Assembly: GCA_021817785.1 (NCBI GenBank)
Contig: JAKAFY010000004.1
Span: forward strand, 6,826-70,825
DNA: 64,000 bases
DNA from: a bacterium
GTDB lineage: Bacteria > Patescibacteriota > Microgenomatia > UBA10105 > UBA927
Direction: 5' to 3'
Positions within the stretch are counted from its first letter, which is position 1, and every line of letters begins with the position of its first letter. Shown here in pieces: positions 9,885 through 25,764 of this stretch. Below the pieces are notes generated by a model. The model was not told the origin of the DNA, did no database searches, and worked only from the letters and a program-made list of their open reading frames with translations. Made by a program: the position numbers and the translations under genes.

Positions 9885-10040
9885 CTCCCTTCGTTAGAAT
9901 TTCTTGATGAGATGTTATCGAATCCTAGAAATTCTTACGCCCTCCGTAGATTGCTCTTTGTGCCGCCAATCTGCCTCGCCGGCCGGCGGGCAAATAGTAG
10001 GTAAGGCAAAAAGTACATACAGACGGACGACAATATTTTT

Positions 10041-10067
10041 TCCCACAAAAAACCGCCCTTCCGGCGG
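10041..10067 (-). terminator. Intrinsic terminator-like hairpin (CCGCC-GGAAG-GGCGG followed by U6) on the minus strand inside a divergent intergenic region
   Basis: Minus strand reads ccgccggaagggcgg then ttttttgtggg. A minus-strand TTGATT-N16-TATAGT promoter-like element sits at about 10118-10145. See findings. Confidence 0.4.
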
Positions 10068-10198
10068 TCCGATCTATTATGCATTATGTGCCCATACAAC
10101 ATACATATGTGCTATGTACTATACCCCTACCCATGGGAAAATCAATAGTGTAATCCCCCATTTCCAACCGCCGGCAAGTCTGATATAGTCTTTCATAT

Positions 10199-10747: not shown

Positions 10748-11066
10748 ACCCCGCGCGCGCTCCATACGCGTTACCGCGCTTACCACGTTTATCCAAAAAT
10801 CAATGGGGCTTATCGGAAAACATTCCGTTTCTCCCGTCACTTTTTCCACCCGGTGGGGACTGCACACCTTTGGCATGTGCGTACCCATCGATGTTCTTAT
10901 TTTGGATGATGACGGCCACGTCGTTTCCCTCGCGCAGTATCTGCACCCAAACCGCTTCTTTTTCTGGAACCCGAAATATATTCGCGTGGTAGAGCTTCCG
11001 GCAGGGTATATCCGCCAAAAGCATATTGCTATCGGAGACACGTTATTGCTACGCACGGCGCAATAA
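10737..11066 (+). CDS. DUF192 domain protein
   Basis: TRWGLHTFGMCVPIDVLILDDDGHVV and a length near 110 aa fit DUF192. The start overlaps the stop of the zinc-ribbon gene (10728 or 10737). Confidence 0.6.
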   Translation: MPNKPRARSIRVTALTTFIQKSMGLIGKHSVSPVTFSTRWGLHTFGMCVPIDVLILDDDGHVVSLAQYLHPNRFFFWNPKYIRVVELPAGYIRQKHIAIGDTLLLRTAQ

Positions 11067-11114
11067 AAAGATGCGCCGGGCAGGGGCGCACCTTTTATAT
11101 ATTATTCGATGGTA

Positions 11115-11531
11115 TTACTGCGGCCGCACGATTACGGTTTGGACATTGTTCCAAAATCCTCCCCCGCTGACCATGATGGTTGCTCCGACTTTGAGATCCG
11201 CAGTCGTTCCTTTGACGATCGTTTCCACCACCGTTTTATCGGAAAGCGTCAGGTCCTGGGTGGTGCCGTTTGGCAGGGTCACGGTTACCGTATTTCCTTT
11301 TACCGCTGTGACTTTCCCCTGCATGCCGCGGCCCAACCTTCCGGTAAATGTGCGGGTCGGGTGTCCGCTGATCATTCCCCCGTATCCCAGACGGCGGGAA
11401 AGCATGGGTTGCGTGTTGCCCCACGCTCCGGCAAACCGTCGCGCGGCGACATGGGTTCCGGCAAAAAATCCTATTGCCCCCACGGCCAACGCGATGACCA
11501 CGGTGAGTGCGATACTTGATGTGTCTTTCAT
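11115..11531 (-). CDS. Membrane-anchored small beta-domain protein (DUF5666-like)
   Basis: GGAG RBS. N-terminal TM. GKVTAVKGNTVTVTLPNGTTQDLTLSDKTVV resembles the DUF5666 repeat. Confidence 0.45.
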   Translation of the reverse strand: MKDTSSIALTVVIALAVGAIGFFAGTHVAARRFAGAWGNTQPMLSRRLGYGGMISGHPTRTFTGRLGRGMQGKVTAVKGNTVTVTLPNGTTQDLTLSDKTVVETIVKGTTADLKVGATIMVSGGGFWNNVQTVIVRPQ

Positions 11532-11702
11532 AGACAAAACTCCTTTGTGTACATGCATCCGATACACCGGATAGTAATAAAGTTCCTTGGCTCCGTCTTC
11601 AGTCGTCGTCCTCTCCGGTCCTTCGTATGGATCTGGCGGGAAGTCTGACCCGACGGATGCTCAAGTAGGTGTACTATATCGCCGTCACCTGAAAACAAGC
11701 TG

Positions 11703-12863
11703 ATGATTGGCGTATCGCGTATAATAGACGCTGCTGTGCAGACCATTACCCAACCCAACCGCATCGTACTCATCTACCTTGCCCGTCCCCGTATCAGCCG
11801 TTCCGAAATGGAAAAAGACGTTACGGAGGTTTGGCAGCTTGTGAGTACGCTGGGAAACGCCAGAATCATCGATATCATCACTCAGCACGGCAGCTCCACG
11901 CAGTCGACGTATATCGGTTCCGGCAAAGCCGCCGAAATTGCGGAGTATCTTCGCACGCATTCGGTGGATACCGTGCTCGTCAGCGGCAATCTGAAACCAA
12001 ACCAGAAGTTCAATCTCGTCAAACTTTTTTGGGGCATACATCCGACTATCCGGGTATGGGACAGGATAGACCTTATTCTCGCCATTTTTTCCCGCCACGC
12101 CCATACCACGGAAGCTTCTCTCCAGATAGATCTTGCCCGTATGCGGCATATGGGGCCGCGTATATACGGCATGGGCCACGAGCTGTCGCAGCAGGGCGGC
12201 GGCATCGGTACCCGCGGCATTGGGGAAACGAATACGGAACTCATGGAACGCCACTGGAAACGCGAAATCAAAAAAGTCCGTGATCAGCTGGACGCACTCG
12301 TCGCAAACCGTACGCGCCAGATGGAAAACCGCAAAAACCTTGGTATACAAACCATTTCAATAGTGGGTTACACCAACGCAGGCAAAACCTCGCTGTTTAA
12401 TGTATTGACGCACAAAAAGCGTCTCGTAGAAAACGCACTGTTTGCCACGCTGGATAGCACGGTTGGGGAAATATATATGCCGGCTCTTGGGAAAAAAGTG
12501 GTTGTCTCCGATACCATCGGATTTATCAGCAATCTTCCGCCGGACCTTATCGAAGCATTTACCTCTACATTACTGGAATCCGTGCATGCGGATGTTGTCC
12601 TCCACGTCATCGACGCGTCGGATCCGGATATCCGGGAAAAAATAGATGTGGTCAGCCACATACTGGATCAGCTCCATATTCCGCCGGAAAAAGAAGTATT
12701 GGTGTTTAATAAAATCGATGCGGCACCATCTCTTGACCGAAGCAAGCTACATAGCTACGCCCGCGGTACGCCGTACGCTATCGTTTCCGCCAAAACAGGA
12801 GAGGGGGTCGAAGAGCTGCTCTCTACAGCGCTTCCTAAATTTTTCCAGTCAACCAAAAAATAG
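11703..12863 (+). CDS. hflX: GTPase HflX
   Basis: HflX N-domain (GNARIIDIITQ...TYIGSGK). GTPase motifs GYTNAGKTSLFN (G1), DTIGF (G3), NKID (G4). Confidence 0.9.
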   Translation: MIGVSRIIDAAVQTITQPNRIVLIYLARPRISRSEMEKDVTEVWQLVSTLGNARIIDIITQHGSSTQSTYIGSGKAAEIAEYLRTHSVDTVLVSGNLKPNQKFNLVKLFWGIHPTIRVWDRIDLILAIFSRHAHTTEASLQIDLARMRHMGPRIYGMGHELSQQGGGIGTRGIGETNTELMERHWKREIKKVRDQLDALVANRTRQMENRKNLGIQTISIVGYTNAGKTSLFNVLTHKKRLVENALFATLDSTVGEIYMPALGKKVVVSDTIGFISNLPPDLIEAFTSTLLESVHADVVLHVIDASDPDIREKIDVVSHILDQLHIPPEKEVLVFNKIDAAPSLDRSKLHSYARGTPYAIVSAKTGEGVEELLSTALPKFFQSTKK

Positions 12864-12924
12864 CCGATGATACTGAAAGTAAACCAAAAAAACATTACGC
12901 GAGTTTTATTTTATGAGGGTGGGA

Positions 12925-13386
12925 TCAACGTCTTCGAGGCCATCGAATCGCTGCTAAACACATATCAGGTGGTAACTTTGTTCCGCTGACTTGAAACGTC
13001 GCGTTTATTCCAGAAATTCGGTTCTTAGGAGTAGAATGAAGACGAGACGAAGTATTGCTATCGAGTATAGTTTGTAACCCAAGAAGTGCCAATGGTCGTA
13101 ACAATCCGAGATCATTTGCTTTATCTACAACGTCCATATGATGATAATCACGACGTCCATCATTTCTACTCTTTACGGCGCTTAATAAATTTCGCACCGT
13201 TCCTTCGCCGGAACACAACTTCTGTCCAATTTCTATTGACGAATAGCCTTGCGCATGTAGGCGAAGCGCTTCCAACTCTCTTAATGATGCAAGAAATCCT
13301 TTGTAATAAATCCAAATATCGTCATTCCGTGAGAATGCTACTGTCGCAACCCTCCCACCGCCCAACTCAATATCTCGCATAAACAT
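12925..13386 (-). CDS. LuxR/GerE-type HTH protein; C-terminal half unrecognisable
   Basis: LRELEALRLHAQGYSSIEIGQKLCSGEGTVRNLLSAVKSR is a LuxR-type HTH. It sits in a low-GC patch. The downstream half of the ORF has no recognisable domain and may be a degraded extension. Confidence 0.45.
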   Translation of the reverse strand: MFMRDIELGGGRVATVAFSRNDDIWIYYKGFLASLRELEALRLHAQGYSSIEIGQKLCSGEGTVRNLLSAVKSRNDGRRDYHHMDVVDKANDLGLLRPLALLGLQTILDSNTSSRLHSTPKNRISGINATFQVSGTKLPPDMCLAAIRWPRRR

Positions 13387-13439
13387 AGGGCCATATTATA
13401 CTATGGGGCTATATAACAGTCAAAATGACCGTCTGGGGG

Positions 13440-13889
13440 CTATTGGAGAACATCTGTGTCATGTACTATTTCCGCGGCATGTACCAGCGGATTTACGCCG
13501 ATATAGCTTTTTACGATTTCCCCGTTGGGATGTATGAGATAGGTATTGCGTAAGACGCCCGTAAACTCCCTGCCCATAAACTTTTTTACTCCCCACGCGC
13601 CATACGCTTCGGCCACGGCATGGTCCTCGTCGGACAGTATCGGAAACGTCAAATGATATTTATCTGCAAACTTTTTATGGCTTGCCACACTGTCTTTGGA
13701 TATCCCCAGTACGACGATTCCCCGCTTCGTATACTCCGCGCCGCGATCGCGGAATCCGCATGCTTCCTTGGTGCACCCCGGCGTATTATCTTTGGGATAA
13801 AAATACACGACCACCCATGATCCTGTATACGCTGCCAGCGCATGATGCTTGCCGTTTTGGTCCAGGAGTGAAAAGAGCGGCGCGTTCAT
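13440..13889 (-). CDS. bcp: Peroxiredoxin Bcp (thiol peroxidase)
   Basis: FYPKDNTPGCTKEACGFRD peroxidatic Cys motif. About 149 aa. Confidence 0.9.
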   Translation of the reverse strand: MNAPLFSLLDQNGKHHALAAYTGSWVVVYFYPKDNTPGCTKEACGFRDRGAEYTKRGIVVLGISKDSVASHKKFADKYHLTFPILSDEDHAVAEAYGAWGVKKFMGREFTGVLRNTYLIHPNGEIVKSYIGVNPLVHAAEIVHDTDVLQ

Positions 13890-13891
13890 AG

Positions 13892-15241
13892 TTACACCTG
13901 TGCCGTATCATGCAGATGCGGCAATACGATATCCGAAATTCCCAGTTCAGTGCTCACGCGTTTGGCCAGTATGTTGCGCTGGCCGTCTTCCCCATGTGTC
14001 AGAAATACTTTCTTTACCCCCTGTATAGGCTGCAACCAATCCATCAGCTGCTGCTGGTCGGCGTGCGAGCTCATGGCCTGCGTATCATGCACCACGCCCG
14101 CCACTTTTACGGTTCTGCCGTCTATGTGTACGGTGCGTTTTCCTTCCAGCAGTTCGCGCCCCAGCGTTTCCTCCCCCTGGTATCCCACGATGAGCAATCT
14201 GGTGGACGCAATCGGCAGGTAGCGCATGGCGTGTTCCCGGATTCTTCCCCCGGTCATCATGCCGCTTCCGGCGATGATCACCTTTGCTCCGGGTTGTGTA
14301 TCCAGCGCGATGCTTTCCTTGCGTTTCCCGATGACGATCAGGCCGGGAAATCCGTACGGCCCCTCCCCGCCGGACTCGTAGCGCACATGCGTATTGCAGT
14401 CTTCGGGATACCGGCTATAGATATGGGTTGCGGTGTTCCCCATCGGGCTGTCGGCATACACGGGCGTTTCGCTGCGTACCTTTCCGTCTTTTTTCAAATG
14501 CATGATCATATGCAAAAGTTCCTGCGTCCGCTGCAGGGAAAATGCGGGGATGAGCAGTGTCCCGCCGCTCCCCTCCACCGCATTGATTTCATTTTGGACG
14601 GTCTCCTTGGGGTCAGTAGTAGGATGCAGCCGGTCTCCGTAGGTAGACTCCATCACCACGGCATCGGCGGATTCGATGGTTTCGGTTTCTAAAAGCAAAT
14701 CATCCGGCGAATTTCCCAGGTCGCCGCTAAATACGATGCGTTGTATGTCGGAATCCGCTTTCGTGTCTTTGATCTCGATCATGGCCGACCCCATGATATG
14801 CCCGGCATCGCGAAGCGTTACCATAAAGTCCCCTATTGGAAACGGCGTGCGATAATACACGCGCTGAAACCGCTGGATGGTCTGTAGCACCCTTTCTTCA
14901 TCATACAGCTCGGGCTTTTCGTCTTCTTTGGCTATCTTTGCGCTGTCTATAAGAGACAATTCCGTCAGATCCGCTGTCGCTGGCGTCATCCATATGGGTG
15001 CGGTATATCCGTTTTTTAAAAGTATCGGCAGTCTGCCGCAGTGGTCCAGATGTGCGTGCGTAAGTATTGCGCCGGACAGCGTGCTGCAGTCATACGCGTA
15101 CGGCTGGTAATTTAGCTGTTCTATCTCTGCCGGTCCCTGAAACATCCCGAGGTCTATAAGGATCGATTGTCCGGAGCCGGAAGTTACGACATAGCTCGAG
15201 CCGGTTACGGTGCCGGCAGCTCCCAAAAAGGTTATCTTCAC
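13892..15241 (-). CDS. MBL-fold beta-CASP RNA-metabolising hydrolase (CPSF73/YSH1-like)
   Basis: N-terminal MKITFLGAAGTVTGS. HxHxDH motif ILTHAHLDHCGRLP. Beta-CASP length of about 450 aa. Confidence 0.85.
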   Translation of the reverse strand: MKITFLGAAGTVTGSSYVVTSGSGQSILIDLGMFQGPAEIEQLNYQPYAYDCSTLSGAILTHAHLDHCGRLPILLKNGYTAPIWMTPATADLTELSLIDSAKIAKEDEKPELYDEERVLQTIQRFQRVYYRTPFPIGDFMVTLRDAGHIMGSAMIEIKDTKADSDIQRIVFSGDLGNSPDDLLLETETIESADAVVMESTYGDRLHPTTDPKETVQNEINAVEGSGGTLLIPAFSLQRTQELLHMIMHLKKDGKVRSETPVYADSPMGNTATHIYSRYPEDCNTHVRYESGGEGPYGFPGLIVIGKRKESIALDTQPGAKVIIAGSGMMTGGRIREHAMRYLPIASTRLLIVGYQGEETLGRELLEGKRTVHIDGRTVKVAGVVHDTQAMSSHADQQQLMDWLQPIQGVKKVFLTHGEDGQRNILAKRVSTELGISDIVLPHLHDTAQV

Positions 15242-15285
15242 CTTACCACTATACTATATTTCACTGTGCCAAACGTATATATATT

Positions 15286-15609
15286 TCAGGACCAACGTAA
15301 CGTTGAATTATATCGAAGCGTTTGGCGAGCTTCAGAAGTAGAACCTACGCCACCGCCGTCTGGCACTGTTATCATCACATTAACATCATTTGTCAGTAAA
15401 TGTGACAATACATCATGGCCAAATCCTCTACCACCAAAGGAGTACATAATTTCCGGCCCGTCAGGAAGTGACACTGTTATGCAACCGCCTCGCAAGACTG
15501 CGCCCGTTACCACCCATCCAAGCTCTCTTGCCCTACGATTATTTCGTAACAAACCGATGGCTTTCACCACATCCGAGCCATATTTGCTTTCGATAATTTT
15601 TTGTAACAT
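15286..15609 (-). pseudogene. Remnant of a YvcK/CofD-family (gluconeogenesis factor) gene; only the N-terminal about 50 aa is recognisable
   Basis: FGGRGFGHDVLSHLL...VMITVPDGGGVGSTSEAR aligns to the YvcK N-terminus (GGGTG...IVTVADDGGSSGRLR) but with an insertion and an early stop. Sits in an AT-rich gap. Confidence 0.35.
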
Positions 15610-15716
15610 ATCTTACACGGAAAAATATATTCTATAGCAGAAAATAACTATAAGTCAATATTTGAGGCTATCTATTTACGAATCCATATAATTCAAGGTT
15701 ATATTATACTGATTCT

Positions 15717-16304
15717 ATGCGCGCAACATATGCTATCCGCCTCCTCGTTCTTGGTGCCGTCATCGCCATCCTTGTTTTCCAAACCATGCAAAAGCCGGCG
15801 CTCCTGCAGCATCCGGCACTTCCCTCGGAGCACACCGGTATAGCCACAGGCAGCGCGGTATTGGGAGTCGTCACCAAATCCGCTGACTGCGTCACCGACG
15901 GCACATTGCCGGACAGCAGTTGTACTCCGGGAGCGATCGACCCCAATGTCACCCAGGACAATATCGGTAGCACCATCTGCGTATCGGGATATACGAAAAG
16001 TGTCCGGCCGGATGTTTCCGTCACCAACACCATCAAAACGAACGTGATGATAGCCTACCGCGACACAGGGACCAAAGCAGACTACGAGCTCGACCACCTT
16101 ATCTCCCTCGAACTCGGCGGGTGTCCGGATTGTGTGGCCAATCTCTGGCCCGAGCCGTATGGCATAGCCTTGGGCGCCCGCGAAAAAGACAAAGTGGAAA
16201 ACTACCTGCGCAAACAGGTGTGCAGCGGCGCCATCAGCTTATCCCAGGCCCAGTCCCAGATCGCCCGCGACTGGGTAAGCGTCTACAGACAACTACCGCA
16301 ATAA
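15717..16304 (+). CDS. Secreted or membrane-anchored HNH-like endonuclease
   Basis: N-terminal TM/signal. Cys-rich. YELDHLISLELGGCPDCVANLWPEP is an HNH-type motif (DH...GG...NLWP). Confidence 0.55.
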   Translation: MRATYAIRLLVLGAVIAILVFQTMQKPALLQHPALPSEHTGIATGSAVLGVVTKSADCVTDGTLPDSSCTPGAIDPNVTQDNIGSTICVSGYTKSVRPDVSVTNTIKTNVMIAYRDTGTKADYELDHLISLELGGCPDCVANLWPEPYGIALGAREKDKVENYLRKQVCSGAISLSQAQSQIARDWVSVYRQLPQ

Positions 16305-17270
16305 TTGAGTTATAAGATTCACAACATGATCTTTCTTTTCAGCCTTACTCTCAGCGACAAGCAACGCCAATGCAGTTAACCCTGCCGGATTGATGCGTCC
16401 GCCTCCCCGCACGCCCGTCTTCCGTAAAAACCAAACGAATGCAAAAGCGCCGGACCTTTTGTTTCCGTCGATAAATGGATGATTTTTTATGATGAAATAC
16501 AGAAGATGCGCGGCTTTTTCTTCAATAGATGCATATAGGTCAGCTCCATTAAATGACTGCATCACATTACCCACTATTCCCTCTATACTCTTCGTTTGTT
16601 TCTCTTTGGCAAATAACTCAGATGCTCCATTTCTTTTTATGAGTTCACGGCGTAAATGAGAGATAGCACGGGTTAATTCGCTCCCCGTCAACTGCACTGC
16701 CTTTTTTGTAAAACCAAGAGGATGTACGGTTCCCTTATCGTATGCTTCAAGCGATACCCACGTCGTAGCAAATTCTTTTATAAGATCCAAAATATTTTTT
16801 GGATCCAACTGGGCGTGTTCAGGCAATAGAGCCTGAATATCTGTTACGGACTTCATAAACGACGTGTAATTTTTGGCGATTCTCTTACGATTTATTGTGT
16901 AGCCGCGCGTTATATGAAGATGCAGTATTTTTGTCGCCCATATCCGAAACTGAGTCGCTCGTTTTGAGCTCACTCGATACCCAATAGACAAAATCATATC
17001 CAAGTTATAGTGCAGGACTTCACGGGAAATACTTCGTATGCCTTCTTGTTGAACTATCCGGATTTTCCGGATAGTTGAAGAATCTCTTAATTCCTCAGAT
17101 GAATAAATATGTTGTATGTGCTCATTCACCGTACGGACATCTACTTCAAACGCGGCCGCGATTTGCGACTGAGTCGCCCAAATAGTTTCATGTGCATAAT
17201 CTCCACGCAACTCTATAGCACCACTTGAGGCTTGGAAGATTACCGACGTAGTTTTTTGTTGCGTTGACAT
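16293..17270 (-). CDS. RhuM-family virulence protein fused to a Doc/Fic (death-on-curing) domain
   Basis: N-terminal RhuM-like region. C-terminal Doc motif HPFIDGNKRSGAFAFVWFLRK (HxFx(D/N)GNKR). Confidence 0.8.
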   Translation of the reverse strand: MSTQQKTTSVIFQASSGAIELRGDYAHETIWATQSQIAAAFEVDVRTVNEHIQHIYSSEELRDSSTIRKIRIVQQEGIRSISREVLHYNLDMILSIGYRVSSKRATQFRIWATKILHLHITRGYTINRKRIAKNYTSFMKSVTDIQALLPEHAQLDPKNILDLIKEFATTWVSLEAYDKGTVHPLGFTKKAVQLTGSELTRAISHLRRELIKRNGASELFAKEKQTKSIEGIVGNVMQSFNGADLYASIEEKAAHLLYFIIKNHPFIDGNKRSGAFAFVWFLRKTGVRGGGRINPAGLTALALLVAESKAEKKDHVVNLITQLLR

Positions 17271-17275
17271 ATACA

Positions 17276-17941
17276 TCACTTCCCGCACGTCTCCGCCTTC
17301 GTATATCCTGCCTTTCTCGCCTCGCGTTCGTCACAAAAATAGTCCTCTCCCCGATTTTTTTCGATCACGGTAAATTTGTACTGCGCGCAGGTGGGCAAAA
17401 AATACGTCTTTACCCCGTTGTCGTCTATGTTTCCCTTTATCGTGCATGTCGAGTTGTCCTTGTTTTCCGTCGACCAGCACGCACCGTATATCCCGCGGTT
17501 AGCCGCACGAGCTTCCGCAGCCGCCGCCTTTAGCGCGTCTTCTTTGGTGGATGTGTCATGGTGGTACGTCGCCCATCCGCTTTTGAGCATCGCTTCGTTT
17601 ACGAGTACGCGCCCGGTATACAGGAGTGCCATCCCCCGTCCCATCTGGTCCGGTATATGTTCGGCTATCACCACCTGTTTTCCCTGGACCAGTGTTTCCA
17701 ATTCTTTTTTGGCTTCTTTCCCGCCGCACGACCCCAATTCAGGGGCATCGATCTGCCGCAATCTCACCCGGTCTTTATTGCCGACTACGATCGTATCCCC
17801 GTCTATGACGCCGATCACCGGCACGCCAATCTCGGGCCGATCGTATTGCCGGGCCAGAAGAACTATATTGAGAAGTATAGACGGGACGAGCAGAACAAGC
17901 CAGACAATTGTTCGCGGGACTATTGATTTTTTATCTATCAT
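17276..17941 (-). CDS. Thermonuclease (SNase-like), membrane-anchored, with Cys-rich C-terminal extension
   Basis: N-terminal TM. VIDGDTIVVGNKDRVRLRQIDAPE is the staphylococcal-nuclease signature. The C-terminal tail has six Cys. Confidence 0.85.
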   Translation of the reverse strand: MIDKKSIVPRTIVWLVLLVPSILLNIVLLARQYDRPEIGVPVIGVIDGDTIVVGNKDRVRLRQIDAPELGSCGGKEAKKELETLVQGKQVVIAEHIPDQMGRGMALLYTGRVLVNEAMLKSGWATYHHDTSTKEDALKAAAAEARAANRGIYGACWSTENKDNSTCTIKGNIDDNGVKTYFLPTCAQYKFTVIEKNRGEDYFCDEREARKAGYTKAETCGK

Positions 17942-17990
17942 ACGTGCCTGAAAATATCATCTTGGCGCGATACATCAACCCGTATTTAGC

Positions 17991-18019
17991 TTGACAAATC
18001 AACCTAAATTACCTATACT
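17991..18019 (+). promoter_or_regulatory. Consensus sigma70-type promoter, TTGACA-N17-TATACT, with no downstream ORF
   Basis: ttgacaaatcaacctaaattacctatact matches the -35 and -10 consensus with 17-nt spacing. Confidence 0.4.
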
Positions 18020-18043
18020 TCTATACAGAATTACCACGAAAAG

Positions 18044-18083
18044 CGCCCCATAAGGCTCGTCCTTACGGGGTTCTTTTCTTTTT
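18044..18083 (+). terminator. Intrinsic terminator: 10-bp stem with one mismatch, then UUCUUUUCUUUUU
   Basis: gccccataagg-ctcgt-ccttacgggg followed by ttcttttcttttt, about 25 nt downstream of the promoter above. On the minus strand it may also terminate the NYN gene. Confidence 0.5.
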
Positions 18084-18140
18084 ATACGCCACTTTCTTTT
18101 TAAGGTCGCTAAGAAACGCAATGCACCCTGATGGAAACCG

Positions 18141-18563
18141 CTATAACAACGCAGAATATTTGCGCTGATCCGGGATAAGCAGCTTCTGTAATTTATTCCG
18201 TTGTAAAAGATAATTTACTAAACAGTGGAAATCACCGTCACCGGTCACGATGACTGCCTGGTGATATTCAGATATATCCACCATCGCCTGCAACACAAGC
18301 TCTGCATCACAATTTCCTTTCACCGTCCCGTCTTTGTATCGCAATGTTGGTTTAAAGATGAGGACATAGCCTTTTTCCTGTAGCGAGCGGTATAGATCAG
18401 CATTTGATTCAAAATATCCTATAAATAGGTACGCTTTCGTGACATGATATTTGTCGGATAAATACACACGGAACCGATGGTAATCTAGTTGCCAGCCCAT
18501 CTCTTTAAAAGACATTACCAGATTCTGGCTATCGATAAACGCATAATTATTTTGTTTCGCCAT
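18141..18563 (-). CDS. NYN-domain (LabA-like) protein
   Basis: MAKQNNYAFIDSQNL...VIVTGDGDF are NYN/PIN-like motifs. Start taken at the internal Met with a GAGGGT RBS. Confidence 0.75.
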   Translation of the reverse strand: MAKQNNYAFIDSQNLVMSFKEMGWQLDYHRFRVYLSDKYHVTKAYLFIGYFESNADLYRSLQEKGYVLIFKPTLRYKDGTVKGNCDAELVLQAMVDISEYHQAVIVTGDGDFHCLVNYLLQRNKLQKLLIPDQRKYSALL

Positions 18564-18625
18564 ACCCTCACTATATGCGAAATATCGGAAATCTCCTGTA
18601 TGGAAGTTCACAATATGCCATGCCG

Positions 18626-18646
18626 CCCACACACCGGGTGTGTGGG
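18626..18646. repeat. GC-rich palindrome CCCACACACCGGGTGTGTGGG followed by TATTTTTT (copy 1)
   Basis: 10-bp arms. Second copy at 20200-20218. Confidence 0.7.
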
Positions 18647-18696
18647 TATTTTTTGCGTTCTTTCGCTACTCTGTGTACTATGGGGTGTATATCCCT

Positions 18697-19227
18697 ATGA
18701 TGCTCCGCGGACTCCATACACTCTTTGTCCTGGCATTTCCCAACCTATACATGCAACTTCTGTATATCCTCACGCTGTCTGCAATTCTTACCTGGCTGTT
18801 CCTCAATCAGAAGCTCAATGCGTTTATCAACGCGGTGTTTTCCATTGTGGGAACCGCCCTCGCCGTCATCATCGGATCGTGTATATCCTTAGTCAGCCGT
18901 ACGCTGAACGTTCTCTTTGGCCCTACGCCGATATTCCCTCCCCTTCGTATTCCCATCTTCGTCAAAGCGCTCATCTGTTTTTTGCTCGGTATCGCCGTGT
19001 TGTATATCGATCACGTCTACGGCGCTCGCTGGTTTTCCGCCGATGAAACCATCCCGTTTTACAAAATGGATGTGGCAGATCATGTATTTTGGGTATCGGC
19101 CTATGCACTCTCTATCGGAGGGTTTTGTATCGGACTGGGGAGCTTCTATCTTGTCACACCTCCGGTACGTGCGATCAATGCGCTACTCAGCCGCCCGTTC
19201 CAGATATCTATTAGATTTTATGTATAA
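18697..19227 (+). CDS. Polytopic membrane protein (hypothetical)
   Basis: Start at ATG (MMLRGLH) with GGGGTG upstream. Five or six hydrophobic helices. The ORF-track start at 18640 is GTG and lies inside the palindrome. Confidence 0.5.
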   Translation: MMLRGLHTLFVLAFPNLYMQLLYILTLSAILTWLFLNQKLNAFINAVFSIVGTALAVIIGSCISLVSRTLNVLFGPTPIFPPLRIPIFVKALICFLLGIAVLYIDHVYGARWFSADETIPFYKMDVADHVFWVSAYALSIGGFCIGLGSFYLVTPPVRAINALLSRPFQISIRFYV

Positions 19228-19275
19228 ATTATTTTTTGTATATATACATAGCATGGTGCTACCATAATAGACAGT

Positions 19276-19593
19276 ATGCCTAAAATAATAGACATTGATC
19301 ATCTTCTGCAGGTATTTCATAAATTCGGAACAAGGGATGTTGTGCTTCCAGACCCCGACGTCCACCTAACCAATGGCCAAATCAAATCGCTCATCACTCA
19401 TGAGCTGGCAACCCCCAGGGCAAAAGGAAGTGGATTTATTTTTCAGAGTGGTCCGATGCAGGAACTAGAAATGAGGGTACAAGGAGCTAAAGATGAACAG
19501 ACATCGCTTTTAGATGATCCGCTCGCAGACATGAAGCGCGGCATCTGGCCAAGAGGAACAAAAAAGGTTCCAAAACATCCGAGATGTAAGTAG
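19276..19593 (+). CDS. Hypothetical protein (low-GC region)
   Basis: 105-aa ORF with no strong RBS and no known domain. Confidence 0.25.
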   Translation: MPKIIDIDHLLQVFHKFGTRDVVLPDPDVHLTNGQIKSLITHELATPRAKGSGFIFQSGPMQELEMRVQGAKDEQTSLLDDPLADMKRGIWPRGTKKVPKHPRCK

Positions 19594-19754
19594 GGGGCCC
19601 AAAAATAATGCGATTCACCATCGAAAGACGTATTGCCTATTTAGCGATGGCCCGGAATCGGAATATATCCAAAGACATCGCGAATATCTTCGTCAGGAAA
19701 TTGCACATCATCATGGCACACTACGGGAATTTCCGGACGGAATTGAAGAATAAA

Positions 19755-20195
19755 TTACAGTATCCGGTGCAGATTCGCCTCACTCGGCGGCGACGCTTTC
19801 AGTAGGGCGATTACCTCGGCAGCCAGTGCATCGGCAAACGTATCCAGATCCCGGTAATCTTTTGCCACAATCCGCGTCACTCCCCGCTTCCTGGCTTCTT
19901 CGTTATATTTGGGCACCGAAGATATGGCAATCACTTTTTGTGGCCCCAACCGCTCGATATCCAGTACGTGAAACGAGCCTCCCAGTTTACAATCGCGGTC
20001 CAGCAGTATCATGTCAAAAACAGCCGAGGGATTATTATTGATGTATGCTTCCACCTGCAGATAGTTGGTGAGGATCACCATGGAAAACTCATACGGTTGG
20101 TCTTCTTCCACCACTGCCAACTTCTCAAGAATTTTTGACAGCGTCCTTAAATCGTCTTCTAGGATAAGGATGGTTTTGTGGAGGATCATAGCCAC
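19755..20195 (-). CDS. Stand-alone receiver (REC/CheY-like) domain protein
   Basis: ILILEDD acidic pocket. ILLDRD putative phospho-acceptor. About 146 aa with no output domain. Confidence 0.55.
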   Translation of the reverse strand: MAMILHKTILILEDDLRTLSKILEKLAVVEEDQPYEFSMVILTNYLQVEAYINNNPSAVFDMILLDRDCKLGGSFHVLDIERLGPQKVIAISSVPKYNEEARKRGVTRIVAKDYRDLDTFADALAAEVIALLKASPPSEANLHRIL

Positions 20196-20199
20196 CTAC

Positions 20200-20218
20200 C
20201 CACACACCGGGTGTGCGT
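20200..20218. repeat. GC-rich palindrome CCCACACACCGGGTGTGCG (copy 2, imperfect)
   Basis: Shares the 17-nt core CCCACACACCGGGTGTG with copy 1. Sits in the 32-nt gap between the DUF2075 stop and the REC start. Confidence 0.7.
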
Positions 20219-20227
20219 AATGTTTAA

Positions 20228-22114
20228 TTAGACTTTGCCCATATCAATTCTACTTCTCACAAACTTCTCCGTTTCCTTGTCAACGAAATACACATAGCAG
20301 CCGCGGAGGGAGCGGCTGAGGAGTACACGGTAGGTGTTTTTCACCAGATCGAGGAATTTGTCTTTACTGCGACGGACCGTGGAGTCGCAGGAGTTTTCCG
20401 GGTGACCTTCCCACGCTCCGGTTTCAAAATTATAGATCATATCGGCACCGACAATCACGCCGACGTAATTAAATTCAAATCCCTGAATGGTGTAAATGCT
20501 GCCGATTTGATTTATGGCGCGTGGGTCGTATGGCCAAAGTGATGCCGGTGGCACATCAGGCGCTAACCGTCGGCCGTTGATCTCTTTCCCTTCCCACGTC
20601 ATTGCGAACTCGCCGATATGCACGTCTTTCACCAGTGTTCCGTCCGAATTCGGCTCGCTCCATGGCCAACAAAAACCGGCAACCATGCGTGCGGAATTAG
20701 GTTCGTCATCATTTTTCGCTTTAATCTTTTCATATAGCTCCTGCGGGGATTTTACGATCTGAAAATCAAATTCCTCACGCTTCGGATGCCATATTGCTTG
20801 CTCCGTGTCATGTATGCCAAACGTATTATTTACCCATTGGACAAATTTATCCGATCCCTGGCAACGGAATTGAATCGCCAAATTATATTCATGTACGTCG
20901 CACCCCAGACGCTGCGCATTCTCACGTATATAGTTTGTCGAACCGATCTCGCCAGGTCGTACATTTTGTCGATCGTCGATAAAAAATACCGGCACCTTTG
21001 CCACACCGATTAATTCTTCGATCTGCGGCACTTCCGAACGGTACTCTTTTTTCGTAAACCGGTTATTGCTGTTTACACGAATCCGGTGCGATTCATCGGC
21101 GATAAGTACATCAATAGAGTTCGGTTCGGCGCGCACATAACTATTGAAGTATTTCACCTGGGACCTCGCAACGGATCCTAATGATTTCCGAAGTGACTCG
21201 GTAAACGCTTTCGAGCCTGTGGCATATTGTGCATTTTTACCTTGCCGCGATAATTCTGCCAAGAGATTAATTGCTATCACTGACTTACCGGTGCCCGGGC
21301 CGCCATTGACGATGACCACAGATTTTCTTTTGCTTGTCCCCCCGTACTTTACGAGGTTCATCACCCGATCAAACGCAGATAATTGATCATCCAACAGGAT
21401 GTACCGTTTATTTTCTTTTACCACCTTCACGACTTCATCAAGCAAGCGTTTACTGGGCCCATACTTACTCTCTAATACGCGCTCCATGACAGGAACGCCG
21501 TTTCCGTTTATGAGTTTCTGTTTCAAAAAATCACTGAGTTTTGTTACATCCCGCTCACAAAATACCGGGTACTCTTTTACATAATCTGCGTATTGCTCCG
21601 CAAACAACGCATCATGCTCGACCGGAACGTAATTGTGCACATAGGCGCACGCATGCAAACGTACCGGATCCGATTCAAAAAAAGCGGAGTGATTATCTTC
21701 TAAATATAATTTATATTGCCCCACCTGCACCGAAGGATGCAGTACATCCCGGTTCGCACCCCCCACCCATGTCACCACACGCTCGCTCACCTCACTGACT
21801 TCTGCTTTTTCCCATTGTTTAAGCTCTATGATGACAGAATGATCTTTCCCGTTTTCATCTCGACCGCAGATCATGCAGTCAATACGTCTAGAATTAAGGG
21901 GAAGCTGGTATTCCAAAATAACTCCATGATCGTGGAATTCGGAAACTTCAAAAACATCTTTTATCGCCCGGAGCGATGTTCGCCATGACCGGACTTCTGC
22001 GTCAGAAGGGTGGTAGCCAAAATAGTCAATAAACGCCGTCTCCAGCTTTGTTGCTATCGTATTCTGCAACGTGTCTAAGACGAACTCACTTATTGAGCCG
22101 GCGTATAATCTCAT
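20228..22114 (-). CDS. DUF2075-family (Schlafen-like) ATPase/helicase with N-terminal nuclease-like domain
   Basis: Walker A VIVNGGPGTGKSV. Walker B VLIADESHRI. Overall DUF2075 architecture with an N-terminal domain (HSVIIELKQW). ATG 2 nt after the mazG-like stop. Confidence 0.8.
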   Translation of the reverse strand: MRLYAGSISEFVLDTLQNTIATKLETAFIDYFGYHPSDAEVRSWRTSLRAIKDVFEVSEFHDHGVILEYQLPLNSRRIDCMICGRDENGKDHSVIIELKQWEKAEVSEVSERVVTWVGGANRDVLHPSVQVGQYKLYLEDNHSAFFESDPVRLHACAYVHNYVPVEHDALFAEQYADYVKEYPVFCERDVTKLSDFLKQKLINGNGVPVMERVLESKYGPSKRLLDEVVKVVKENKRYILLDDQLSAFDRVMNLVKYGGTSKRKSVVIVNGGPGTGKSVIAINLLAELSRQGKNAQYATGSKAFTESLRKSLGSVARSQVKYFNSYVRAEPNSIDVLIADESHRIRVNSNNRFTKKEYRSEVPQIEELIGVAKVPVFFIDDRQNVRPGEIGSTNYIRENAQRLGCDVHEYNLAIQFRCQGSDKFVQWVNNTFGIHDTEQAIWHPKREEFDFQIVKSPQELYEKIKAKNDDEPNSARMVAGFCWPWSEPNSDGTLVKDVHIGEFAMTWEGKEINGRRLAPDVPPASLWPYDPRAINQIGSIYTIQGFEFNYVGVIVGADMIYNFETGAWEGHPENSCDSTVRRSKDKFLDLVKNTYRVLLSRSLRGCYVYFVDKETEKFVRSRIDMGKV

Positions 22115-22116
22115 GG

Positions 22117-22506
22117 TTATAATTCCGTATACTTTTTATGATTTCCTTTTGCTTTATTCACTGGGTATTTTTTACTACTTACTGCCATTTTATTTTTAAA
22201 CGCCTGTACAATATCTATATCTAAATCGTGACTCATGAGTAATACCCAGTACAATACATCAGAAAGTTCCTCGCCTAATTCTATTTTATGTGTTTTAAGA
22301 TACACCTGTATTTCTTTTTCGTTTTTCCATTGAAAATGCTCCATTACCTCTGTGGCTTCTAATACGAGGGATAGCGAGGTATCTTTGGGATTATGAAATT
22401 TTTTCCAATCCCGTGCATTGCGGAATTTAATGATGAGATTCGTTAATTCTTGTATGTCTGACATAAAGTACCGGTTTATAGTACTGCTTTTGGCGCTTAT
22501 TCGCAA
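22117..22506 (-). CDS. MazG-like nucleotide pyrophosphohydrolase (NTP-PPase)
   Basis: HNPKDTSLSLVLEATEVMEHFQWK...ELGEELSDVLYWVLL is the MazG/YpjD-type EExxE/D pattern. Tightly coupled to both neighbours. Confidence 0.75.
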   Translation of the reverse strand: MRISAKSSTINRYFMSDIQELTNLIIKFRNARDWKKFHNPKDTSLSLVLEATEVMEHFQWKNEKEIQVYLKTHKIELGEELSDVLYWVLLMSHDLDIDIVQAFKNKMAVSSKKYPVNKAKGNHKKYTEL

Positions 22507-22511
22507 TCTGT

Positions 22512-23198
22512 TTATAACAAATTTTTCTGTTTCAAACTTATATATCCTTCCGAAGAAATAATAATGTGGTCAATGACATGCACACCCGTCAATTCCCCGA
22601 CGGAAACCAATCTCTGAGTGAGATTCAAATCTTCATCTGAGGGTGTTAAGTCCCCAGATGGATGATTATGTGCTAATACAATACGAGCAGCTAATTGTTT
22701 TATCGCAGGTTCAAACACCTCTCTAGGATGCACGAGCGAAGAATTGAGAATTCCGACAGAAATATCACGTATGTCAATCAAATTATTTTGTGCATCGAGA
22801 AGCAATATTACAAAGTGCTCTTTTTTCTCACGACCCAACCGTTTCTGTAAATAGTCAGCTACCTTATTGGGGGATGTTAACGATATCTTCGTTGGCAGCG
22901 TTTCTTTGGCATACCGCTCAGCGATTGCCTGAAATAGTTTTATGCCAAACGCATTTGACGGGCCGATACCCTGTATCATTTGTACGTCTTCGTCAGATGC
23001 GTCCAGCACCCCGCGCAATCCGTTAAAGTGTTTTATCGCTTCTTTCGCAATCGCCTTACAGTCTTTGCGTGGAGTTCCCAATGTGAGGAGGAGTTCTACG
23101 ATTTCATAATCCAAAAATCCATCAAGTCCCGACCGGAGAAACCGCTCTCGCAATCGCTTCCGGTGTCCGGCGTGCGGGTATGTACCTCTTTGCTTCAC
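22512..23198 (-). CDS. radC: RadC-family JAB-domain protein
   Basis: N-terminal HhH region. JAMM motif HNHPSGDLTPSDED. Confidence 0.9.
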   Translation of the reverse strand: MKQRGTYPHAGHRKRLRERFLRSGLDGFLDYEIVELLLTLGTPRKDCKAIAKEAIKHFNGLRGVLDASDEDVQMIQGIGPSNAFGIKLFQAIAERYAKETLPTKISLTSPNKVADYLQKRLGREKKEHFVILLLDAQNNLIDIRDISVGILNSSLVHPREVFEPAIKQLAARIVLAHNHPSGDLTPSDEDLNLTQRLVSVGELTGVHVIDHIIISSEGYISLKQKNLL

Positions 23199-23289
23199 AT
23201 AAATAATGGTACACCAGAACCCTTCGTTATCGCCATTTGATCTATATGTAATGGTTCTATGAACAATTTGACATCAAACGGAGCGTATT

Positions 23290-23535
23290 CTATTTCGGAC
23301 CATTTTTTTGTGCCGCAACTCGCCAACTAAATATACCTTTTCCCCCACCCCTCCTCGACCTCGCATATCCTCTGTTGAGATGTTTCCCTTGAGGGCCATC
23401 GTGTAATTCTCGAAGTAAATCAAGCTCCCGATCACTTAGCGTAGATGGATCGATTTGCAGCTTATGCGCCAAATCATTTCTAGCTGCTATCGCCCAGATT
23501 GCTGCTAATTTTTCTTCTGAAATGTTATCAAACAT
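23290..23535 (-). CDS. Hypothetical protein
   Basis: 81-aa ORF with no motif. Confidence 0.25.
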   Translation of the reverse strand: MFDNISEEKLAAIWAIAARNDLAHKLQIDPSTLSDRELDLLRELHDGPQGKHLNRGYARSRRGGGKGIFSWRVAAQKNGPK

Positions 23536-23595
23536 ACAGACACCTATGATCTTACTATACGCTCATCATTCAAATACATGATTCGCCAAAACATC

Positions 23596-23889
23596 TTAAC
23601 CACAAGTTTTCTCAGGATGCTCGAAATGAAAATATGTAAGATGATCGAGAATTTCCTGAGCGGTCCAATCCCATACGGAGTTTGTACGTATCATCTCGCG
23701 GTACTCATCTCTATGATTCCTCGCGACACCAAGATAATACGCAAATTTTGGGTGTTCCGGCCCGTCTTTCAATGCATCCAGCATGTTCGAAAAAAAGAAC
23801 GATTCGATCCCAAAATCCGACATTTCCCGATACTCACGTATTTCCGCTCTCATGATATATATTATAGGATATTTTATGCCTTCCATCAA
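23596..23889 (-). CDS. Hypothetical protein
   Basis: 97-aa ORF with acidic and aromatic residues and no motif. Confidence 0.3.
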   Translation of the reverse strand: MMEGIKYPIIYIMRAEIREYREMSDFGIESFFFSNMLDALKDGPEHPKFAYYLGVARNHRDEYREMIRTNSVWDWTAQEILDHLTYFHFEHPEKTCG

Positions 23890-23940
23890 TCCCGCATCCT
23901 ATGGTGCAGGCTCCGCACGCGTATATCGTATACATACATC

Positions 23941-24026
23941 CATACACCTCCGAGGTGTAAAGTTGCCTAAACTTTTTCATTCAAAATTAGCCTCATTTTT
24001 TCCTTACACCTCCGAGGTGTTAGAAA
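23941..24026. repeat. REP doublet (left): two ACACCTCCGAGGTGT hairpins separated by a conserved linker of about 45 nt
   Basis: catACACCTCCGAGGTGTaaag...ttagcctcattttttccttACACCTCCGAGGTGTtaga. Confidence 0.85.
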
Positions 24027-24027
24027 T

Positions 24028-24741
24028 CTACGATAGTTCGTCAGAAAACGCATCTATCGCGACATGAGAAATCGTATGAAGTTCGCGTGCATACAACTCC
24101 TGATCACGCACAAACTCCGCATATTTTTCCTGCGAGCCTGCCAACGAACATATCAGTGCCGTATCCACCATACTAATTGATCGTCCCATATAGCATGAAT
24201 ACGACGTGTAAAGTGATGTGGCGAGAGTCGACAGTGTTTCTATCCCGGAAACAACCGGATTCAGGTGAATATACCGTGACACGTGCAGCAACTGCTCATC
24301 GGATTCTATTCGCACTGCCTGAAAGTTCCCCTGAAACACCGGGCCGACGCGTTTTCGTTTCGTATTAAAATACCGCGCATAGCTATTCATTGCCCGAAAT
24401 AAAAATGTGTGTATCCCCTCGTCCTGCTCCTGTCGTACGAGGAGATGAAAATGATTCGGCATCAATGCATATGCGTATAGAGATACGTGTTTTCCCGACT
24501 CATTCTGTGCCTCCCTGATAATGCGTTGTTTATCTAAAGGGGCGATGGAGTAAAGAGAAAGCTTAGTAGGACAATTGGTGAATCGGTAAAAATCTAATCC
24601 GAGTAAAAAATGTCTATAATCCGATACATTCCGGAACACGGAGCTTCTATCCACACCGCGGTTATAGATGTGATAGTACTCACCCGTCACCAATGGAACG
24701 TGCCGCATCGGCATACATGTACCATACCCGATTGGCAACAA
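24028..24741 (-). CDS. REP-associated tyrosine transposase (RAYT; IS200/IS605-family Y1 HuH transposase)
   Basis: HuH motif YALMPNHFHLLV. Catalytic Tyr region SRYIHLNPV. N-terminal YHIYNRG. Flanked by REP hairpins. Confidence 0.85.
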   Translation of the reverse strand: MLPIGYGTCMPMRHVPLVTGEYYHIYNRGVDRSSVFRNVSDYRHFLLGLDFYRFTNCPTKLSLYSIAPLDKQRIIREAQNESGKHVSLYAYALMPNHFHLLVRQEQDEGIHTFLFRAMNSYARYFNTKRKRVGPVFQGNFQAVRIESDEQLLHVSRYIHLNPVVSGIETLSTLATSLYTSYSCYMGRSISMVDTALICSLAGSQEKYAEFVRDQELYARELHTISHVAIDAFSDELS

Positions 24742-24776
24742 TACTTCAGTTATATTTCATACACCTCCGAGGTGTT

Positions 24777-24860
24777 AAATTTTCATCACAAACTCTTCAA
24801 ATTTAGCCTCATTTTTTCCATACACCTCCGAGGTGTTAGAAAATTCTTTATTCGCGGGCA
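24777..24860. repeat. REP doublet (right): two ACACCTCCGAGGTGT hairpins with a conserved linker
   Basis: catACACCTCCGAGGTGTtaaattttcatcacaaactcttcaaatttagcctcattttttccatACACCTCCGAGGTGTtagaaaa. Confidence 0.85.
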
Positions 24861-24894
24861 GGGGCGTACGATTTGTACTATACTACCCGGAAGA

Positions 24895-25764
24895 ATGAAA
24901 TTATTTTCCAAGATGAGCAAAGGCCTCCTGTTTGGTCTGGCCACGGCCATATTATGGGCGTGTTCATTAGTAAACACGCGATTTCTTCTGTTGCACGGCG
25001 AACAACCGCTCAACCTGACAATCTGGATCGGATTGGGTATGGCGGCCCCCTGGCTTTTTCTGTTTTACAGACATCACCGGGAATACCGCGCGCTTCCCAA
25101 AAAATATAAATGGTATTTGTTGGGCATCGGCATAGCGTCTTCCGTAGGACTCAATTTACTGCAGTCGGTGACGCTTGCCCATACGCCTGCCGTCAATTTT
25201 TCGTTCCTCTACCGCACCATTGTGGTGTTTACCATCATCCTTGCGTATATCTTTTTCAAAGAAGCCATCACGGTGAAAAAATGGATACTCGCCGGACTTA
25301 TCCTGTTCGGTTCATATTTGTTCACGACCAGCGGGAAAGGCATTACCCTTTCTACCGGAGATGTTTATACACTGGTGTATGCGCTCTCCGCCGCGTTTAT
25401 CGCTAATATTCTTATCAAACACACGGTTGCCAAAATGCATCCGGATTTAAGCGGCGCTGCCATTTCTATCGTGGCCACCACGTCCCTTTGTGTCTATGGC
25501 ATAGCAAGCGGCACCCTGCACGTCTCCGGACACATGCCGTTTATTCTCCTGGGGGCGGCATTTTCGTTTCTTATGACGATGGCCAGAAACCGCGCATATA
25601 AAGTCGCCTCCGCTTCATTTGTCACCATGATCGTGTCGCTTACTCCCGTTTTTGTCGGCATTCTCTCCTATCCGCTCCTCCACGAACGCCTCACTCCGGT
25701 CGAGCTTCTCGGCGGCACGATTATCGTGGGATCCATGTTCTTCGTCGAAAAATTTCACATCTGA
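24895..25764 (+). CDS. EamA/DMT-family transporter (10 TM)
   Basis: Two EamA-like halves. Start taken at MKLFSKMSKGLL. The upstream part of the ORF-track ORF is antisense to the RAYT and REPs. Confidence 0.75.
   Translation: MKLFSKMSKGLLFGLATAILWACSLVNTRFLLLHGEQPLNLTIWIGLGMAAPWLFLFYRHHREYRALPKKYKWYLLGIGIASSVGLNLLQSVTLAHTPAVNFSFLYRTIVVFTIILAYIFFKEAITVKKWILAGLILFGSYLFTTSGKGITLSTGDVYTLVYALSAAFIANILIKHTVAKMHPDLSGAAISIVATTSLCVYGIASGTLHVSGHMPFILLGAAFSFLMTMARNRAYKVASASFVTMIVSLTPVFVGILSYPLLHERLTPVELLGGTIIVGSMFFVEKFHI

Follow-up and report, generated by a model that had tools for sequence, protein, structure and literature searches.

Architecture of the locus

The locus lies on the minus strand of the 64,000-nt stretch of DNA analysed here (hereafter the 64-kb window) and comprises a single nuclease gene with two short hairpins on either side. 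The gene, which encodes a Y1 HuH nuclease of 228 aa, occupies positions 24028 to 24714, stop codon included. Its open reading frame extends from 24028 to 24741 on the same strand and gives 237 aa from a TTG codon; in the homologues and in P0001, a database protein, translation starts at the ATG at 24714, the start adopted here. No second copy of the nuclease gene was found in the 64-kb window.

The 15-mer ACACCTCCGAGGTGT occurs exactly four times in the window, against a chance expectation of 0.08 matches in dinucleotide shuffles, and the central base of all four copies is identical, a C on the plus strand. Read along the sense strand of the gene, the copies are hairpins U1 (24822–24836, distal, ACACCT-CGG-AGGTGT) and U2 (24761–24775, proximal) upstream, and hairpins D1 (24006–24020, next to the stop codon) and D2 (23944–23958, distal) downstream, all assigned to the minus strand. 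Each is an exact copy and folds, as DNA, into a stem of 6–7 bp with a 3-nt loop at −5 to −6.3 kcal/mol. The core of U2 ends 47 nt before the ATG, which is the position typical of the family, as described below. A search of the window with the looser pattern CACCTCNGAGGTG, allowing up to two mismatches, added a single site at 41781, which is at chance level.

The four hairpins pair into two hairpin-linker-hairpin units of about 85 nt, which are direct repeats of each other. The upstream unit (24758–24842, minus strand) can be aligned to 10 further units, taken from the window and from two related genomes. It lies in the 198-nt intergenic region from which the nuclease gene and an EamA gene diverge, with their ATG codons at 24714 and 24913, respectively. 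The downstream unit (23941–24026) has the same orientation and begins 7 nt past the stop codon. Folding of whole units gives −14 to −17 kcal/mol, with z-scores of −5 to −6. The first-pass annotation, made from the sequence of the window, was right in describing two palindrome copies on each side in direct-orientation doublets and in finding no further copies in the window. It also placed the left unit correctly; the right unit had been put at 24777–24860, about 18 nt too high, and the hairpin at 24761 would be lost from it.

On the sense strand, the order within a unit is a hairpin (ACACCT, 3-nt loop, AGGTGT), a conserved motif of about 22 nt, 20–45 variable nt and a second hairpin. The spacers of the two units measure 47 and 46 nt, in agreement with the linker of about 45 nt noted at first, but the conservation then attributed to the whole linker is limited to about 24 nt beside one hairpin (TTCAAAwTTAGCCTCATTTTTTCC), and the remainder differs. 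A 47-nt block that includes hairpin D1 is 96% identical between the two units. The linker motif AAAAATGAGGCTAA has two matches in the 64-kb window, both within the units: one at 24803–24816 (minus strand), just 3′ of U1 on the sense strand, and one at 23987–24000 (minus strand) in the downstream unit, recovered by both the unit alignment and the pattern match. Its G/A/G/C/T/A columns are invariant in 11 units from three genomes.

Four identical short palindromic repeats, with neighbours about 61 nt apart at two places, could suggest a degenerate mini-CRISPR array. The start-to-start spacings across the locus are, however, 62, 755 and 61 nt, with the nuclease gene in the middle, and both short spacers share the conserved 24-nt block, which recurs in other genomes. 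In addition, the repeat is just 15 nt long, the 64 kb hold no further repeats, and no Cas Pfam domain was found among the genes within ±10 kb. The spacing and the conserved linker refute an array, a reading to which we attach practically no probability; the first-pass annotation had already remarked that the locus could be mistaken for one.

Two small open reading frames in the linkers (MRLNLKSL and MRLILNEKV) were rejected as genes, since their ATG is ATC or ACG in relatives. Rfam gave nothing meaningful, either for the whole window at the gathering threshold or for 23800–24950 at E ≤ 5, and a tRNA scan found no tRNA.

The nuclease protein

The translated protein contains both of the motifs by which it was originally recognised, YALMPNHFHLL and SRYIHLNPV. 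The HuH motif is N87-H88-F-H90, and the catalytic Tyr148 lies within RYIHLNP. In an alignment of 46 homologues, N87, H88, H90 and Y148 are among 25 invariant residues. The protein matches Pfam Y1_Tnp (PF01797) with 27.7 bits against a gathering cut-off of 23, as do all 46 aligned homologues. The score against the NCBIfam RAYT equivalog NF047646 is 48.6 bits, under the cut-off of 80.

A single-sequence phmmer search of the PDB returned no match, and the family profile was required. With the profile of the 46 homologues, E. coli TnpA-REP (4ER8) is the best solved relative, PNHFHLL aligning over PEHMHCIW and RYIHLNP over DYIYINP. The AlphaFold (AF2) model, with a pLDDT of 90, leads to the same place: Foldseek ranks 4er8_A at the top (E = 8.7e-8, TM(target) 0.67), followed by the TnpA proteins of IS608 and ISDra2. 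The assignment of the protein to the Y1 HuH enzymes, on their RAYT-like branch (class 2, with Y---NP), is supported.

Hairpins across the gene family

We inspected 80 metagenomic loci that encode homologues, 73 of which were evaluable for a hairpin search. In about half of the 80, a CACC-loop-GGTG hairpin lies 43–48 nt before the ATG and 12–58 nt past the stop. In a sequence-independent search, 60 of the 73 evaluable loci had a hairpin with a perfect stem in the 100 nt upstream of the gene, typically about 45 nt before the ATG, and at least 33 of the 73 had an identical 7-bp stem at both gene ends. The stem sequence varies among loci with pairing kept (ACACCT/AGGTGT, CCACCC/GGGTGG, CACATC/GATGTG, AACCTC/GAGGTT), and the 3-nt loop is free to vary. 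In an alignment anchored on an adjacent TTGACA, 82.6% of stem cells are paired, against 70.4% in shuffles and 35–51% in slid controls, and double-sided changes number 49, against 23.6 in shuffles. These comparisons support the view that the repeats belong to the gene family and have probably been retained as its cognate hairpins.

The same palindrome also appears beside distant homologues. When 185,579 species-representative genomes were scanned for TACACCTCCGAGGTGTWA, 70 loci were found, seven of which encode a homologue 32–38% identical to the window protein, with the palindrome at the gene ends. By their record titles, these seven belong to Thermodesulfovibrionales/Nitrospirota, WOR-3, Deltaproteobacteria, Nealsonbacteria and one MAG named “uncultured Gammaproteobacteria”.

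An exact TTGACA is present in 45 of 79 homologue loci, 6–8 nt after the hairpin and mostly 35–39 nt before the ATG. This spacing suggests a promoter whose transcript would start at or near the start codon, and the position of the TTGACA would then leave the upstream hairpin outside the gene’s own mRNA. The window’s own upstream region is without a canonical TTGACA box, and a scan with the sigma-70 consensus found no promoter for the gene there. The hairpin has the look of an anti-Shine-Dalgarno/Shine-Dalgarno pair (CACCTCC/GGAGGTG), and control of the gene’s own translation was entertained; this was dropped in view of the 47 nt that separate the hairpin from the ATG and of its position in the family, upstream of the −35 box.

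In many loci, the downstream side is a mirror image of the upstream side, and the two form inverted repeats of about 35 nt, hairpin-N6-TTGACACCT ... AGGTGYCAA-N6-hairpin. The terminal inverted repeats in these loci enclose the gene and its promoter, with the hairpin at the outer end. Other loci, the window among them, have the hairpins only.

Dispersal of the units in relatives

Most homologue loci carry just the two gene-flanking hairpins, and extra copies within ±6 kb are rare. The lack of other copies in the window, which had been regarded as unusual at first, is therefore normal for the family, and so is the low copy number that had been proposed from it. Copy numbers are higher in close relatives: the window has four hairpins in 64 kb, all beside the gene, and the relatives have 5–12 in 14–21 kb. 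The relative with a 70% identical protein (L157) has five hairpins in 18 kb, and the two with 57% identical proteins have 12 in 20.8 kb (L158, on an 809-kb contig) and eight in 13.9 kb (L161).

In L158 and L161, the hairpins form doublets of 74–91 nt with the same linker motif (AAAAwsGAGGCTAA). These doublets are found 10–50 nt past the ends of co-directional genes, counted from the stop codon, and every one is oriented with transcription. In relatives, units occur without the nuclease gene. The consensus of 11 units from three genomes is a hairpin, wAGnAAAAwsGAGGCTAAATTTG, a variable stretch of 20–45 nt and a second hairpin; GAGGCTAA is nearly invariant among the 11 aligned units. The doublet can apparently spread, as the closest relatives show.

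Repetition within genomes was seen more widely in the genome scan, in which 16 MAGs have at least two exact 18-mer matches on separate loci (37 loci in all), and 11 of the 16 are named as Patescibacteria lineages. By our own arithmetic, about 35 matches would be expected by chance over the whole database and about 0.003 same-genome pairs; the within-genome repetition is therefore real, though some of the single matches may be due to chance. Clustering of the scan matches by their ±200-nt context gave three small clusters only, and the recurring doublet was found by pattern search.

The placement of the doublets raises the question of whether the hairpins are mainly regulatory or RNA elements of the host, such as 3′ stabilisers of mRNA, terminators or the operator of a duplex-binding protein, with the link to the nuclease being secondary and the nuclease no longer acting on them. 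The position and orientation of the units in L158 and L161 would fit such a role, as would the upstream hairpin that abuts the −35 box across the family, and one hairpin scores as terminator-like on the plus strand. A perfect 6+1+6 palindrome is, moreover, equally compatible with a dimer that would bind duplex DNA. On the other hand, the upstream hairpin precedes the promoter and so would lie outside the gene’s own mRNA, and on the sense strand an A-run, not a U-run, follows the first hairpin of each unit. Across phyla, the hairpin also keeps fixed distances from the nuclease gene, the hairpin sequences at the two ends of each locus vary together, and all 25 invariant residues of the protein, the catalytic ones included, are intact. 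We consider a mainly regulatory role unlikely.

Inheritance of the locus

All the listed places of the gene, among 15 contigs and with eight similar places collapsed, share one context. Six independent assemblies have 0–1 mismatches over 1,087 nt, and in L157 the gene again adjoins the EamA/HTH_17/PBP/DUF2207/YceG block. Together, the single context, the six near-identical assemblies and the synteny with L157 argue against recent acquisition, which had been suggested at first, and against an active insertion sequence.

The latter deserves consideration, since the two same-orientation units could be the left and right ends of an autonomous IS200/IS605-type element, a unit of about 0.9 kb that would move as a whole by peel-and-paste via a single-stranded circle. 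The Y1_Tnp domain is what such an element would encode, subterminal hairpins in the same orientation at both ends are found in IS608, and Group 1 is the most IS-like group of RAYTs, with 6.3% duplicates and some members on plasmids (Bertels et al., PMC5581495). Yet the protein has Y---NP (class 2), in contrast to the Y---Q of IS200 transposases, and the gene is present as one copy in 64 kb, in one context among the listed places, at a position that is near-identical in six assemblies and syntenic in the 70%-identity relative. No tnpB was found within ±10 kb, and relatives have repeat units without the gene. An autonomous insertion sequence is thus very unlikely.

Class assignment

The first-pass annotation saw in the locus the classic RAYT/REP architecture. 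This does not hold: the protein falls below the NCBIfam RAYT cut-off, the hairpins are without a 5′ GT[AG]G, and the motifs and profile comparisons lead instead to subclass 2.1. According to Quentin et al. 2018 (PMC6006769, Table 1), members of this subclass carry the signature NH[YF]H/FQ/Y[IV]HLNP, and their median length is 238 aa; in the window protein, which has 228 aa, the corresponding motifs are NHFH, GPVFQG and YIHLNP. Subclass 2.1 (PMC6006769) is the same as the Group 1 RAYTs (PMC5581495) and probably the same as the TIRYT/TIRtron elements (Di Nocera et al. 2013, PMC3733652).

Comparison by hhalign with the best relatives from plasmids, proteins of Rhodospirillum rubrum and Sporomusa termitida, gave 99.4% probability, with E = 5.7e-22 and 1.6e-21, respectively, over about 178 columns that include the proximal tail with its W-S-S region. 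The R. rubrum protein has the motifs NHIH/WQ/YIELNP. The S. termitida protein combines Y1_Tnp with Bac_DnaA_C, a pair described for subgroup 2.1.2 (PMC6006769). A distal C-terminal HTH-like domain (Bac_DnaA_C, HTH_23 or HTH_28) was detected in none of our 46 family members at Pfam E ≤ 1, and subgroup 2.1.2 is itself heterogeneous in this respect (PMC6006769). Judging from its sequence, the protein is thus closest to subclass 2.1; its core motifs, the hhalign result and the proximal tail point there, without a detectable HTH-like distal domain.

Interpretation and proposed mechanism

Taken together, the locus probably consists of a single-copy gene, fixed in the chromosome, whose product is a single-strand DNA nuclease of the Y1 HuH type derived from a transposase (class 2, closest to 2.1), and of the cognate recognition hairpins kept on both sides of that gene, as in a REPtron/TIRtron. 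That the protein would bind and cleave DNA, mobilise the doublets and regulate its own gene follows by analogy; the mechanism outlined here is drawn from the biochemistry of TnpA-REP and IS608 and from general knowledge of HuH enzymes. The hairpins would extrude from transiently single-stranded DNA, as with E. coli TnpA-REP and IS608 TnpA, and the protein would bind the stem and adjacent bases. Nearby single-stranded DNA would be cleaved with the aid of a metal held by H88 and H90, a 5′-phosphotyrosine link would form through Y148, and the strands could be rejoined. It is tempting to propose that this activity occasionally copies or moves a doublet and that, in relatives, doublets have presumably spread in this way to positions immediately behind stop codons. 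For a second recognition or cleavage element, the most obvious candidate is the conserved motif of the linker. Binding at the hairpin beside the −35 box could also repress the gene’s own promoter, whose spacing suggests a leaderless mRNA.

We are evenly divided over a broader proposal, namely, that the nucleases of subclass 2.1/Group 1 have a cognate 6+1+6 hairpin whose places are fixed, about 45 nt ahead of the ATG and directly behind the stop codon; that its ACACCT-NNN-AGGTGT version is almost unchanged across several phyla; and that, in some Patescibacteria, REPIN-like mobile doublets have colonised 3′ intergenic sites, even in frame, as doublets of 40–41 nt, in PcrA/UvrD and GHMP-kinase genes. 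This would be the first system of the REP/RAYT type in such ultra-small genomes. A full-text search of the available library found no paper that quotes the palindrome or describes RAYT/REP elements in Patescibacteria, and Quentin et al. (PMC6006769) found no REP-like sequences for subclass 2.1.

Elements of this kind (REPtron/TIRtron) are already known; the present one comes from a lineage that has received little study and from a subclass reported to have no such repeats. In itself it is ordinary, a Y1 nuclease that has been domesticated together with hairpin repeats of its own, and the general picture of REP/RAYT systems is unchanged. What it offers is a structurally conserved cognate hairpin at fixed positions for the largest and least understood RAYT-like subclass (2.1/Group 1) and, with it, a defined candidate substrate for biochemistry. 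The hairpin appears to be conserved across phyla, with proteins down to about 35% identity, unlike classical REPs, which differ between species. REP-like doublets would, in addition, be present in Patescibacteria, where repeats are scarce, possibly including in-frame copies inside essential genes.

Comparison with known systems

By its sequence, the protein falls outside the canonical RAYTs and comes nearest to subclass 2.1/Group 1/TIRYT. With the canonical RAYTs (subclasses 2.2, 2.4 and 2.5), it shares the class 2 Y---NP motif, here YIHLNP, and a single-copy, vertically inherited gene, as indicated by the one copy in the window, the one listed context and the synteny with L157. E. coli TnpA-REP (subclass 2.2, REP/BIME) is the best match in the PDB by both structure and sequence, and it, too, is a single-copy gene flanked by cognate paired hairpin repeats, with other repeats after the 3′ ends of genes. 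The two proteins are, however, just 12% identical in the structural alignment, FQ here takes the place of the conserved WE/WQ, and the repeat copies counted in the 64 kb and in the stretches of relatives number a few rather than hundreds. The hairpins here are short, perfect and free of bulges. Furthermore, E. coli TnpA-REP requires a 5′ GT[AG]G for binding and cleavage, and the hairpins of the window are without this tetranucleotide; the 5′ flanks seen on the sense strand are TTCTA, TTTA and CTTT. A G[TA]AG at the 3′ foot of the first hairpin is seen in relatives only. Without the tetranucleotide, and with a stem that is both short and perfect, recognition must follow other rules than in E. 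coli.

The repeating unit, a hairpin pair with a spacer, recalls the REPINs (Bertels and Rainey 2011, PMC3116915), as do the intergenic dispersal, here in relatives, and the tie to a single-copy Y1 gene. In contrast to REPINs, both hairpins of a window unit share their central base, so there is no clear inverted pair, the spacer has a conserved motif of its own, and the populations seen in the stretches analysed are tiny. With the TnpA proteins of IS200/IS605 elements (IS608, ISDra2), the protein shares the Y1 HuH fold, and the locus shares the hairpins near both ends on the same strand; besides the Y---NP motif in place of Y---Q and a single-copy, syntenic gene without tnpB, it differs in an extra C-terminal region of about 70 aa.

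The likeness is greatest with TnpA-Y1 2.1/Group 1/TIRYT, from the core motif signature and the length of about 230 aa to the proximal C-terminal tail with its conserved W-S-S. TIRYT-type elements also have a low copy number, and their flanking short repeats form small dispersed families, often dimers, only in some cases. Differences are evident as well. The present clade is without a Bac_DnaA_C or HTH distal domain, the present protein has an insertion of about 30 aa past the first helix in comparison with the plasmid proteins, and in L158 and L161 the place of simple terminal inverted repeats is taken by direct-orientation units of two hairpins with a conserved motif in the linker. Most hosts are Patescibacteria, a group unsampled in the published Group 1/TIRYT surveys, and the host of the window gene, to judge by the names given to homologues, is probably one as well. 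The hairpin here is CACCTC-N-GAGGTG, not GGGGWSAS, and in direct orientation; GGGGTCAG is seen in the plasmid relatives only. Nevertheless, beside the plasmid gene of R. rubrum, GGGGTCAGACCCC lies about 45 nt ahead of the ATG and GGGGTCTGACCCC 3 nt past the stop codon. This repeat is likewise a 6+1+6 palindrome (GGGGTC-A-GACCCC, which fits GGGGWSAS), with the same geometry and positions as here. The TIR motif of the TIRYTs and the hairpin described here thus look like variants of one architecture.

Repeats within and beside coding sequences

The repeat doublet also lies inside protein-coding genes. At the locus L033, a 40-nt double hairpin, TCACCTCCGAGGTGA-AAAAAATGCGCTT-ACACCTCGGAGGTGT, sits in frame at 4196-4235 within a UvrD/PcrA-type helicase gene (3137-5083), where it translates to HLRGEKMRLHLGGV directly ahead of the conserved AVLYRTNAQSR motif. 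The same doublet and flank occur at four other loci (L015, L025, L040, and L042), and a degenerate form of both at a fifth, L051. The position of the helicase doublet is identical across MAGs labelled Daviesbacteria, Patescibacteria, and "uncultured Gammaproteobacteria". A 41-nt version of this doublet is found, again in frame, at 502-542 of the locus L063, within a GHMP-kinase gene (233-1237), and is translated as STSEVKKMQLHLGGV; the loci L013 and L038 have a flank similar to that of the L063 doublet. The one additional spacer base of the GHMP-kinase doublet places its first hairpin in a different reading frame from that of the helicase doublet.

The repeats also distort gene calls. In the window, a 384-aa ORF on the forward strand (24610-25764) is a 283-aa EamA gene, with its ATG at 24913, that has been over-extended through the upstream repeat unit. 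Likewise, P0004, the 270-aa database protein of the homologue carried by L158, a relative with 57% protein identity (L158:10001-10813), has both its start and its end within hairpins, and in several homologues a translated hairpin forms a C-terminal tail, e.g., TSEV.

Genomic neighborhood of the nuclease gene

It may be that the repeats cluster close to the nuclease gene and are not evenly spread. In the 20.8-kb L158 locus, all 12 hairpins fall in the 6 kb from the nuclease gene onward (9991-16250), and none of them lies in the 10 kb upstream of that gene. The hairpin-bearing 6 kb contains two NERD-domain genes and a peptidase gene, and a type I restriction-modification operon begins just after it.

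Three genomes have a RadC/JAB-domain gene next to the nuclease gene: in the window (22512-23198, reverse strand) it lies some 830 nt downstream, and in L158 (9319-9981) and the second 57%-identity relative, L161 (9243-9905), it is immediately upstream. In L157, the syntenic relative with 70% protein identity, the surroundings of the nuclease gene lack a RadC/JAB-domain gene.

In the window, the nuclease gene lies at the margin of a variable stretch that is slightly richer in AT (about 13900-24000; 46.5% GC versus 49.8%). This stretch, which has the appearance of a defence or accessory island, includes DUF2075/Schlafen-like helicase, MazG-like, RadC, NYN, SNase, and Fic/RhuM genes. In L157, the nuclease gene is just ~2.8 kb from the beta-CASP/RMMBL gene, with different genes between them.

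Putative promoter region and a plasmid relative

An exact TTGACA is present in 45 of 79 metagenomic homologue loci (L077-L156), mostly 35-39 nt 5′ of the ATG, a spacing which implies that mRNAs of this nuclease gene family would be leaderless. The conserved CCT after the TTGACA box (TTGACACCT) is a repeat of the left arm of the hairpin.

On the Rhodospirillum rubrum plasmid NC_007641, the gene for WP_011387744, annotated "transposase", has a perfect 19-nt inverted repeat either side, TTAAAAGGGGTCAGACCCC and GGGGTCTGACCCCTTTTAA (L165:1446-1464 and 2212-2230), whose arms individually form 6+1+6 palindromes. Just upstream is a type II toxin-antitoxin pair of the death-on-curing (Doc) kind.
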